A DNA stretch of 531 bases from Escherichia coli (GTDB lineage: Bacteria > Pseudomonadota > Gammaproteobacteria > Enterobacterales > Enterobacteriaceae). The position numbers and the translations under genes were made by a program. The DNA lies in the NCBI RefSeq assembly GCF_003334335.1, contig NZ_QOWQ01000174.1, one strand, 5' to 3'. Position 1 is the first letter of the stretch; every line of letters begins with the position of its first letter. This document shows positions 207 through 531 of the stretch, piece after piece. Under the pieces are notes generated by a model. That model ran no database searches. It had not been told where the DNA came from and worked only from the letters and a program-made list of their open reading frames with translations.

Positions 207-530
207 TCAGGTGCTGATACTGAACTCACCGGGAGGCACCCGGCACCATGCAATGGCACATAGCGCCACTCTCCAGCCCCTCTCCGGAGGGGCTTTCTTA
301 TGGACAAAAAAAGCCCGCGCTGGGAGACGCGGGCGGCAAGGAATAAACAACAAAACGTGAAGTAATATTTCAGCTGGCGAATAATATCCGACAGTAATCA
401 CTCTGCGCAATAGCGCGGCCTTTTTCGTATTGCGGGCTGTAGTCTTCCTCCTGCCATTGTCCTGTAACTTCCGGACTTCAGCCCGTTCCCTCATCTGACT
501 CACAACATTATCCCGACCGGGAGGATTCAT
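207..530 (-). CDS. Hypothetical ORF (107 aa) from the six-frame track; doubtful as a full-length gene
   Basis: Open frame from ATG 530-528 to TGA 209-207. The N-terminal ~55 codons (530 to ~365) are basic and protein-like (MNPPGRDNVVSQMRERAEVRKLQDNGRRKTTARNTKKAALLRR...). The frame then runs through the - strand terminator (334-304) and the + strand terminator hairpin before reaching a stop, and it is antisense to the + ORF. Its RBS would lie outside the window. Confidence 0.2.
   Translation of the reverse strand: MNPPGRDNVVSQMRERAEVRKLQDNGRRKTTARNTKKAALLRRVITVGYYSPAEILLHVLLFIPCRPRLPARAFFVHKKAPPERGWRVALCAIAWCRVPPGEFSIST
275..300 (+). terminator. Rho-independent (intrinsic) terminator, + strand
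   Basis: Stem 275-282 AGCCCCTC pairs with 287-294 GAGGGGCT (8 bp, 6 G:C), tetraloop TCCG 283-286, followed by T-rich tail TTTCTTA 294-300. Sequence downstream of the same hairpin on the - strand is not T-rich, so the orientation is +. Confidence 0.6.
277..293. repeat. GC-rich palindromic 17-mer CCCCTCTCCGGAGGGGC, copy 2 of 2 (coincides with the + terminator stem)
   Basis: 15 of 17 positions identical to 141-157. Confidence 0.4.
304..334 (-). terminator. Rho-independent (intrinsic) terminator, - strand
   Basis: Stem 313-319 GCCCGCG pairs with 328-334 CGCGGGC (7 bp, all G:C or C:G), 8-nt loop 320-327. On the + strand it is preceded by A7 (306-312), so on the - strand the transcript reads GCCCGCG-UCUCCCAG-CGCGGGC-UUUUUUU-GU. 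Downstream on the + strand (GGCAAGGAATAAAC) is not U-rich. Confidence 0.7.
304..380 (-). ncRNA. Candidate small RNA on the - strand ending at the - terminator; 5' end undefined
   Basis: On the - strand a U-rich stretch (CUUCACGUUUUGUUGUUUAUUCCUUGCC, about 362->335) directly precedes the terminator hairpin with U7. This resembles the 3' module of Hfq-dependent sRNAs. A weak promoter-like pair lies upstream on the - strand: TTGCGC (410->405), 18-bp spacer, TATTAT (386->381). Confidence 0.25.
519..528 (+). promoter_or_regulatory. Shine-Dalgarno / ribosome-binding site for a + strand gene starting at the right edge
   Basis: GGGAGGA at 519-525, a near-consensus SD, then spacer TTC and ATG at 529-531. 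If the true start is the first codon beyond the window, the spacer is 6 nt, which is also well placed. Confidence 0.45.
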
Positions 531-531
531 G
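529..531 (+). CDS. Possible start codon of a downstream + strand gene truncated by the window end; product unknown
   Basis: ATG at 529-531 lies 3 nt after the SD GGGAGGA. Only the start codon is inside the window, so no protein evidence is available. The same CATG palindrome also provides the ATG of the - strand ORF 207..530. Confidence 0.3.

Follow-up and report, generated by a model that had tools for sequence, protein, structure and literature searches.

The window analysed here, a 531-nucleotide (nt) stretch of Escherichia coli DNA, originates from the late region of a lambdoid prophage, and the element under study is a small RNA (sRNA) gene on its minus strand, ending at an intrinsic terminator at 334..306. 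Prophages of more than 12 complete E. coli genomes match the window at 100% identity, and partial matches were found in 2777 of 5426 complete E. coli genomes. In strain JE86-ST05 the plus strand carries, in this order, the antiterminator Q, a methyltransferase, tRNA-Ile/Arg/Arg, a TerB-family gene and a DUF3927 gene, which ends at window position 34; the intergenic region is followed by a SASA/NanS-p esterase (ATG at window 529), then by holin and lysis genes. This gene order identifies the plus strand as the late-operon strand of the phage. A full-length STnc100 sRNA (Rfam RF02076, 143 bits) occupies 100-305 on the plus strand, and the element sits between it and the start of the nanS-p-type esterase gene, the STnc100 terminator (275-294, plus) opposing the minus-strand terminator across 18 nt. 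With a probability that we put at roughly 85%, the element is the gene for an Hfq-dependent trans-acting sRNA in the 'moron' region of lambdoid prophages, the same as EcOnc08/21/42 of enterohaemorrhagic E. coli (EHEC) Sakai and as a candidate described in enteropathogenic E. coli (EPEC).

The minus-strand site recovered by a terminator scan consists of GCCCGCGTCTCCCAGCGCGGGC followed by TTTTTTT. Its 8-bp stem, at 334..313, has seven G-C pairs and a 6-nt loop at 326..321, and the U7 tail at 306..312 corresponds to the transcript 3' end and to the expected site for the Hfq proximal face. Read 5' to 3' on this strand, the region runs ...CACGUUUUGUUGUUUAUUCCUUGCC-GCCCGCGU-CUCCCA-GCGCGGGC-UUUUUUU. 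Four terminator-like sites were found in the window, compared with 0.8 expected from shuffles, and the segment 340..306 folded alone reached -16.9 kcal/mol (z = -3.5), a value equalled by none of 200 shuffles. A short sRNA of about 70 nt (AGCUGAAAUAUUACUUCACGUUUUGUUGUUUAUUCCUUGCCGCCCGCGUCUCCCAGCGCGGGCUUUUUUU, 306..375, minus strand) is predicted, its 5' end being placed from the promoter described below, and it coincides with EcOnc08. In fold predictions the first 41 nt of this RNA are essentially unpaired and U-rich, and no plausible start/stop codon pair occurs in it. The element thus combines the Rho-independent hairpin and long U tail typical of Hfq-binding sRNAs. An earlier note on this DNA had proposed a U-rich single strand, a GC hairpin and U7 on the minus strand, and this architecture was confirmed, with about 40 U-rich unstructured bases preceding the hairpin (334..313) and the tail (312..306).

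Variants of the element were gathered by BLAST from E. coli genomes and phage records and by two pattern scans of viral contigs, one of which was anchored on the RNA body alone and is therefore unbiased with respect to the promoter. This gave 44 distinct sequences in all, and conservation was calculated from an alignment of 21 diverse variants. RNAalifold, run on 19 variants, returned the terminator helix as the sole helix and predicted no conserved 5' structure. Across variants, 91.4% of the cells of the specified helix were paired, versus 83.8% in shuffles, and its covariation score of 0.306 (0.162 in shuffles) was reached by none of 500 shuffles, all slid registers being far worse. Terminators folded one by one showed replacement of G-C by A-U or U-A at several stem positions; such compensatory changes are expected of any terminator and say little more. 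A covariance model built from 19 variants gave 98.8 bits on window 306..375.

The position of the element is exactly that of the "convergent sRNAs" described by Tree et al. (2014) between a moron and a conserved phage open reading frame (ORF) in Sakai prophages Sp3, 4, 5, 9, 10, 11, 15 and 17 (PMC4104026). The window is 92% identical overall to Sakai Sp4, with a single mismatch in 70 over 375..306. The published Northern probe for EcOnc08/21/42, AATAATATCCGACAGTAATCACTCTGCGCAATAGC, equals window plus strand 380-414 exactly, so it detects a minus-strand RNA; the species reported with it was about 271 nt long (PMC4104026). Hfq peaks from crosslinking and analysis of cDNA (CRAC) were also placed on the window. 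The EcOnc08 peak (Sakai 1179938-1180010, minus; PMC4104026 Table S2 coordinates) corresponds to 308-380 and the EcOnc21 peak to 386-471, whereas EcOnc42, from the Shiga toxin (Stx) 1 phage Sp15, falls at about 388-470 after coordinate correction, in the same place as EcOnc21. Among these near-identical copies, the EcOnc08 peak was present in five of five datasets and another in three of five (PMC4104026). Sequence identity with the Sp4 and Sp15 loci at the peak and probe coordinates points to the same locus and nearly the same sequence, and nothing substantive differs, except that the prophage of the window is non-Stx and carries the TerB and DUF3927 morons. Later papers list EcOnc42 as an sRNA 3' of stx1AB with unknown function.

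The table coordinates of Tree et al. deserve a comment. They fit NC_002695.2 at Sp4 (1.18 Mb), where position 1182010 has the PasA-like terminator expected of EcOnc52, and are about 137 bp too low from Sp5 (1.27 Mb) on, as judged from the displacement of the AsxR and AgvB Rfam matches relative to their table coordinates. A location of EcOnc42 at 525-607 was discarded as an artefact of this shift between Sakai genome versions downstream of Sp4. The highly expressed novel non-coding RNAs (ncRNAs) ncR1085800 and ncR1481381 of Neuhaus et al. (2017) were likewise rejected as this element, being located elsewhere in the genome; that study lists no ncRNA beside the relevant STnc100 copies, which is uninformative given its filters.

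A second copy was detected by RNA interaction by ligation and sequencing (RIL-seq) in EPEC E2348/69. Pearl Mizrahi et al. (2021) reported there a new sRNA candidate, E2348C_1409.E2348C_1408.IGR, noted its homology to EcOnc08/21/42 and located it in prophage PP6, on the minus strand of NC_011601 at 1444797-1444978 (PMC8550237), which is equivalent to window 306-487, minus strand. The EPEC copy also differs from the window at one base in 70 over 375..306, and the coordinates of its chimeric reads as second RNA (RNA2; 1444795-1444817) correspond to window positions of about 304-326. Its longest U tract is 7 (PMC8550237 Tables S3, S5 and S6). It was RNA2 in 100% of its chimeras, which numbered 1215 fragments in activating and 257 in non-activating conditions, and had ten partners, comprising no sRNA, nine coding sequences (CDS) or 5' untranslated regions (5'UTR) and one 3'UTR or intergenic region (PMC8550237). 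The second-RNA position in all chimeras is canonical Hfq sRNA behaviour. The EPEC copy adjoins an STnc100 disrupted by ISEc13, unlike the window, and is a RIL-seq candidate for which PMC8550237 gives no Northern blot. Two other EPEC placements were set aside: the candidate E2348C_2757.EST5UTR belongs to a different prophage (PP10), and the 50-kb region of NC_011601 around 2.7 Mb is a Mu-like prophage, the correct locus being PP6. Taken together, the EcOnc08 CRAC peak at 308-380 and the EPEC 3' end at about 304-306, from copies that each differ at one base in 70, support the proposal of the earlier note that an Hfq-type minus-strand sRNA ends at about 305. The element is an already reported, still unnamed prophage Hfq-binding sRNA, so the idea was right but not new.

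The published partners include the 5'UTRs of cfa (767 chimeras) and dppA (197 chimeras) (PMC8550237). A MEME motif, GGCAAGG/GGCAGGG (PMC8550237 Table S7), was found in E2348C_3965, emrA, the yagU intergenic region, pcm, tir, cfa, dppA, espC, gadX and perA. We found that CCUUGCC, at window 341..335 and adjoining the terminator stem, is the exact complement of GGCA(A/G)GG. It belongs to the conserved single-stranded box UUCCUUGCC (335..343, minus), whose column identity is 0.96 across the 21 variants. CCUUGCC is likely to be the seed, as a conserved box in an unstructured region complementary to the published target motif, the regulation itself being putative. The U/G-rich stretch UUUUGUUGUUUA (344..355, minus), which varies in length between variants, may provide a second pairing or Hfq-contact region, and is preceded by another conserved box, CUUCACG (356..362, minus; column identity 0.95). 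In two variants from viral contigs, L106 and L098, the seed box is tandemly duplicated (TTCCTTGC-TTCCTTGCC), so that the presumed pairing site is present twice.

These boxes bear on the view that the locus is a mere insulating terminator, one of a back-to-back pair that would stop antisense read-through into the moron and STnc100, its RNA being a by-product. The arrangement of the convergent terminators, at 275-294 (plus) and 334-313 (minus) and 18 nt apart, would suit such a role. Strong conservation of single-stranded boxes upstream of the hairpin makes this highly improbable, as do the Hfq crosslinks, which are reproducible, and the specific set of targets, whose motif is complementary to the RNA.

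Upstream of the RNA body, the minus strand carries TTGCGC (405..410) and TATTAT (381..386) as putative -35 and -10 hexamers, with an 18-nt spacer at 404..387. Among the 21 variants the mean column identity is 0.95 for the -35, in which TTGC is invariant, and 0.98 for the -10; together with the CUUCACG and UUCCUUGCC boxes and the T-run of the terminator (0.98), these are the maxima of conservation. The spacer is 18 nt long in all 21 variants although its sequence varies (identity 0.84), and indels are confined to the region downstream of the -10. In the body-anchored matches the only -10 variants seen were TACTAT and GATTAT, A2 and T6 being kept. In copies located in an unrelated upstream context, namely beside a holin gene in PhiR49_2 and ACN001 and in other DNA in an O22:H8 strain and strain M1, homology starts about 15-20 nt upstream of the -35.

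Two sibling prophages are instructive in this respect. Sakai Sp5 and Sp10 are homologous to the window from the esterase ATG down to ...GGCCGCGCAGTTGCGCAG; they have the same TTGCGC, the same 45 nt upstream of it and the 18-nt spacer, then TAAAAT where the window has TATTAT, and the 5' end of AsxR or AgvB (Rfam match) follows 6-7 nt after TAAAAT. Both 5' ends were mapped as primary, tobacco acid pyrophosphatase (TAP)-dependent ends by rapid amplification of cDNA ends (RACE) (PMC4104026). Because the promoter is homologous to that of AsxR and AgvB, the start in the window is predicted at A375 or G374, which makes a short form of about 70 nt (375..306) plausible. The earlier note had taken the TTGCGC-18-TATTAT pair for a weak promoter with a poor match. 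The hexamers are present and the match of the -35 to consensus is 3/6, as it stated, but conservation in 21 of 21 variants and homology to the AsxR/AgvB promoter indicate that this pair, as judged from comparative data, is better supported than was assumed.

On the plus strand, a terminator-like hairpin at 403-418 (CTGCGCAATAGCGCGG, then CCTTTTT) overlaps the sRNA -35 and is also found upstream of AsxR and AgvB. Several variants lose the hairpin and keep TTGC, so it does not explain the conservation of the -35. It might serve in attenuation on the late strand or in insulation of the sRNA promoter.

A longer transcript has to be considered beside the short one. RNA-seq coverage in EPEC gave an estimated size of 182 nt (PMC8550237), with a start that maps to window 487, and an RNA of 271 nt would begin near 577, within the esterase gene and antisense to it. 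Given this estimate and the ~271-nt Northern band, the longer minus-strand RNA also ends at the 306 terminator. The second Hfq peak, represented by EcOnc21 at 386-471 and by EcOnc42 in Sp15, falls in its extra 5' part (376..500, minus). A candidate promoter lies at 507..531 (minus), with GATAAT at 512..507 as -10 and ATGTCA at 535..530 as -35, the latter running off the window end; ATG(T/C)CA-17-GATAAT was the sole promoter-like site in scans of three copies. The start predicted from it lies near 500, and the resulting antisense RNA, of about 195 nt, would come close in size to the EPEC estimate. Since the ribosome-binding site and start codon of nanS-p overlap with this candidate promoter on the opposite strand, the conservation of 507..531 is uninformative. 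Within the second Hfq peak, the ARN-like run AGGAGGAAGAC (452..442, minus) is a plausible candidate for a distal-face Hfq site on the long isoform.

The earlier note had allowed that the terminator might belong to a longer mRNA. A longer RNA does use it, but looks non-coding: the sole long minus-strand ORF (530..207, 107 amino acids) reads through the terminator, and its close homologues differ by single-base indels that break the frame. That the terminator closes a small minus-strand protein-coding mRNA, for example one carrying this ORF, is hardly credible. The ORF exists mechanically and some phage records annotate 'hypothetical proteins' here, but it crosses the terminator into STnc100 antisense, so a transcript ending at 306 would contain no stop codon, and neither the frame in close homologues nor the 70-nt RNA offers a coding alternative.

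A main role in cis may also be envisaged. The minus-strand RNA is antisense to the Q-antiterminated late transcript and, in its long form, to the esterase 5'UTR and start codon, and it would modulate the expression of late genes or of nanS-p by forming duplexes or through transcriptional interference. Complementarity to the late-operon strand is perfect by construction, the candidate promoter of the long form overlaps the esterase ribosome-binding site and ATG, and the arrangement with STnc100 is convergent. RIL-seq, however, shows the RNA as RNA2 with partners in trans, nine of ten being CDS or 5'UTR and no esterase figuring among the targets consulted, and family members beside a holin gene (PhiR49_2, ACN001), with no adjacent esterase gene, keep the seed and the terminator. 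We regard a cis role as distinctly improbable as the explanation of the locus. The interpretation we retain, a trans-acting sRNA, probably involves two nested transcripts sharing one terminator, of which the short one is deduced from sequence comparison.

Several observations weigh against this interpretation, or at least against its short form. The published sizes are all long (~271 and 182 nt), so that the 70-nt form is a prediction only. A consensus promoter scan of the window did not report the TTGCGC/TATTAT pair, which it missed because the -35 matches consensus at only 3/6 positions; this match and the 18-nt spacer weaken the promoter of the short form. By comparison the pair is strongly supported, its hexamers and spacing being conserved in 21 of 21 variants. 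The fold of the long RNA is not unusual (z = -0.72). On the target side, RNAduplex gave the sRNA no energetic advantage over its shuffled versions against either cfa or dppA, the 8-nt match to cfa was by itself not significant in a shuffle comparison, and target pairing and regulation are putative.

Part of these observations would be accounted for if only a long RNA of about 180-270 nt were made, region 304-410 being its 3' Hfq-binding end and TTGCGC/TATTAT being conserved as RNA sequence. The two long size estimates, the second Hfq peak upstream at 386-471, and the weak -35 with the silent promoter scan all agree with this view. The Northern probe (380-414), however, lies wholly upstream of the predicted start, so the published blot cannot detect a 70-nt species beginning at 375. 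Copies in unrelated contexts, whose homology starts just before the -35, would lack the promoter of the long form. Conserved hexamers, a spacer of variable sequence fixed at 18 nt and indels occurring only after the -10 are further points against it, as are the presence of the same -35 before AsxR and AgvB, with their mapped primary 5' ends, and the edge of the EcOnc08 peak at 380, near the predicted start. That the long RNA is the sole product is possible, though we think it unlikely, and we retain a short form in addition to the long one.

As regards known families, an Rfam search of the window (E<=10), which the earlier note had suggested for this strand, gave no minus-strand family at threshold. 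Matches to OmrA-B (19.9 bits), SgrS and the Leu leader were sub-threshold and terminator-driven, and were rejected. The AsxR (RF02703) and AgvB (RF02702) models had no match in the window at E<=10, whereas they scored 88 and 96 bits, respectively, on their own Sakai loci, and the covariance model of the element family reached only 10.5 bits on AsxR and 10.8 on AgvB, no more than noise at the level of unrelated terminators. The element thus has no Rfam match to these anti-sRNAs, including their conserved 3' region of about 42 nt, and the RNA bodies are not detectably related. It nevertheless occupies the same slot downstream of PR', between moron and esterase gene and facing an STnc100-type sRNA in convergent orientation; the -35 TTGCGC, upstream 45 nt, 18-nt spacer and -10 position are common to all three, and the element likewise consists of a short 5' single strand and a terminator. 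AsxR and AgvB pair with sRNAs, whereas the published partners of the element are mRNAs, none of the ten being an sRNA; for this reason the element behaves as an ordinary sRNA and not as a sponge of another sRNA.

The PasA/PasC sRNAs of EPEC (Zhu, Shabalina and Storz, 2026 preprint) are also prophage-borne and Hfq-dependent, lie beside an esterase gene opposite to the late operon, and have a seed that abuts or overlaps the terminator stem, as in the element. They differ in sequence and are found on the other side of the esterase gene. Since BLAST of the window against the PasA/PasD2 locus (PP2) yielded no match, the element was rejected as a Pas sRNA. A weak match of the family covariance model in EPEC PP2 (L005 5268-5328, plus; 16.3 bits, E ~0.06), at the 3' end of PasD2, is probably a terminator resemblance only.

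The dppA target opens a further question. Positions 354..345, UUUGUUGUUU, show perfect complementarity to AAACAACAAA, located at -31..-22 in the dppA 5'UTR; a match of this length was reached in 20-38 of 2000 shuffles. This C/A-rich site is the one through which GcvB represses dppA. AgvB of the sibling prophages antagonises GcvB. One may therefore picture the primary sRNA of about 70 nt as the real regulator, made from the promoter cassette that drives AsxR/AgvB in sibling prophages, in an exchangeable promoter-plus-terminator slot with swapped seeds; the seed CCUUGCC plus UUUGUUGUUU would then target host mRNAs, among them dppA at the site used by GcvB, imitating GcvB while AgvB blocks it. 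As a whole this scenario is rather doubtful. The likeness to GcvB, a core-genome sRNA, is one of functional analogy only: a G/U-rich single-stranded region is present in both, with no sequence or structural homology, and the dppA pairing of the element is predicted. If it were true, related prophages would push the GcvB regulon in opposite directions.

The neighbouring STnc100 of the window is homologous to Sakai EcOnc05, whose plus-strand Hfq peak maps to 161-284, within STnc100, and STnc100 has been related to PasD in a 2026 preprint. In PP6 of EPEC E2348/69 (NC_011601) the STnc100 copy is split by ISEc13 at the equivalent of window ~151-201; the minus-strand sRNA beside it is intact and is the copy detected by RIL-seq. 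BLAST located the element at 1814 places, spread over 1192 of the 5426 complete E. coli genomes, and in 58 phage records, mostly of Stx-converting phages. In the data analysed here, the family was seen only in E. coli prophages, in E. coli and Stx phage records and in viral-database contigs of unidentified host. When one genome per species was scanned with CTTCACGTTT..TTCCTTGCC, the 47 matches were all due to chance, terminator and promoter being lacking in every one.

We propose that the sRNA is transcribed on the minus strand, convergently with STnc100, and ends at the intrinsic terminator at 334..306, whose hairpin and U7, with the preceding U-rich stretch, would form the Hfq-binding module by analogy with established sRNA architecture. 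A primary RNA of about 70 nt would start at A375 or G374 from the TTGCGC-18-TATTAT promoter, while a second, longer RNA of about 180-270 nt, which has been observed, would begin in the 5' end of the esterase gene or close to it. CCUUGCC, possibly extended by the U/G-rich stretch, would pair with GGCA(A/G)GG in host and virulence mRNAs such as cfa, dppA, emrA, tir, espC, gadX and perA. The association of the RNA with Hfq and these partners has been published; the pairing through the CCUUGCC seed and any regulatory outcome are what we infer.

What is new here is that published data have been placed on the window, that comparative arguments are given for the promoter and the short isoform, and that the seed has been connected with the target motif. 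Two points may guide experiments, namely that the published probe is blind to the predicted short form and that the promoter is shared with AsxR and AgvB. The RNA is present in about a fifth of complete E. coli genomes, yet has neither a name nor an Rfam family. In many Shiga-toxin phages it lies directly downstream of stx1 or stx2, and it contacts virulence mRNAs (tir, espC, perA) as well as membrane and stress mRNAs (cfa, emrA, gadX).

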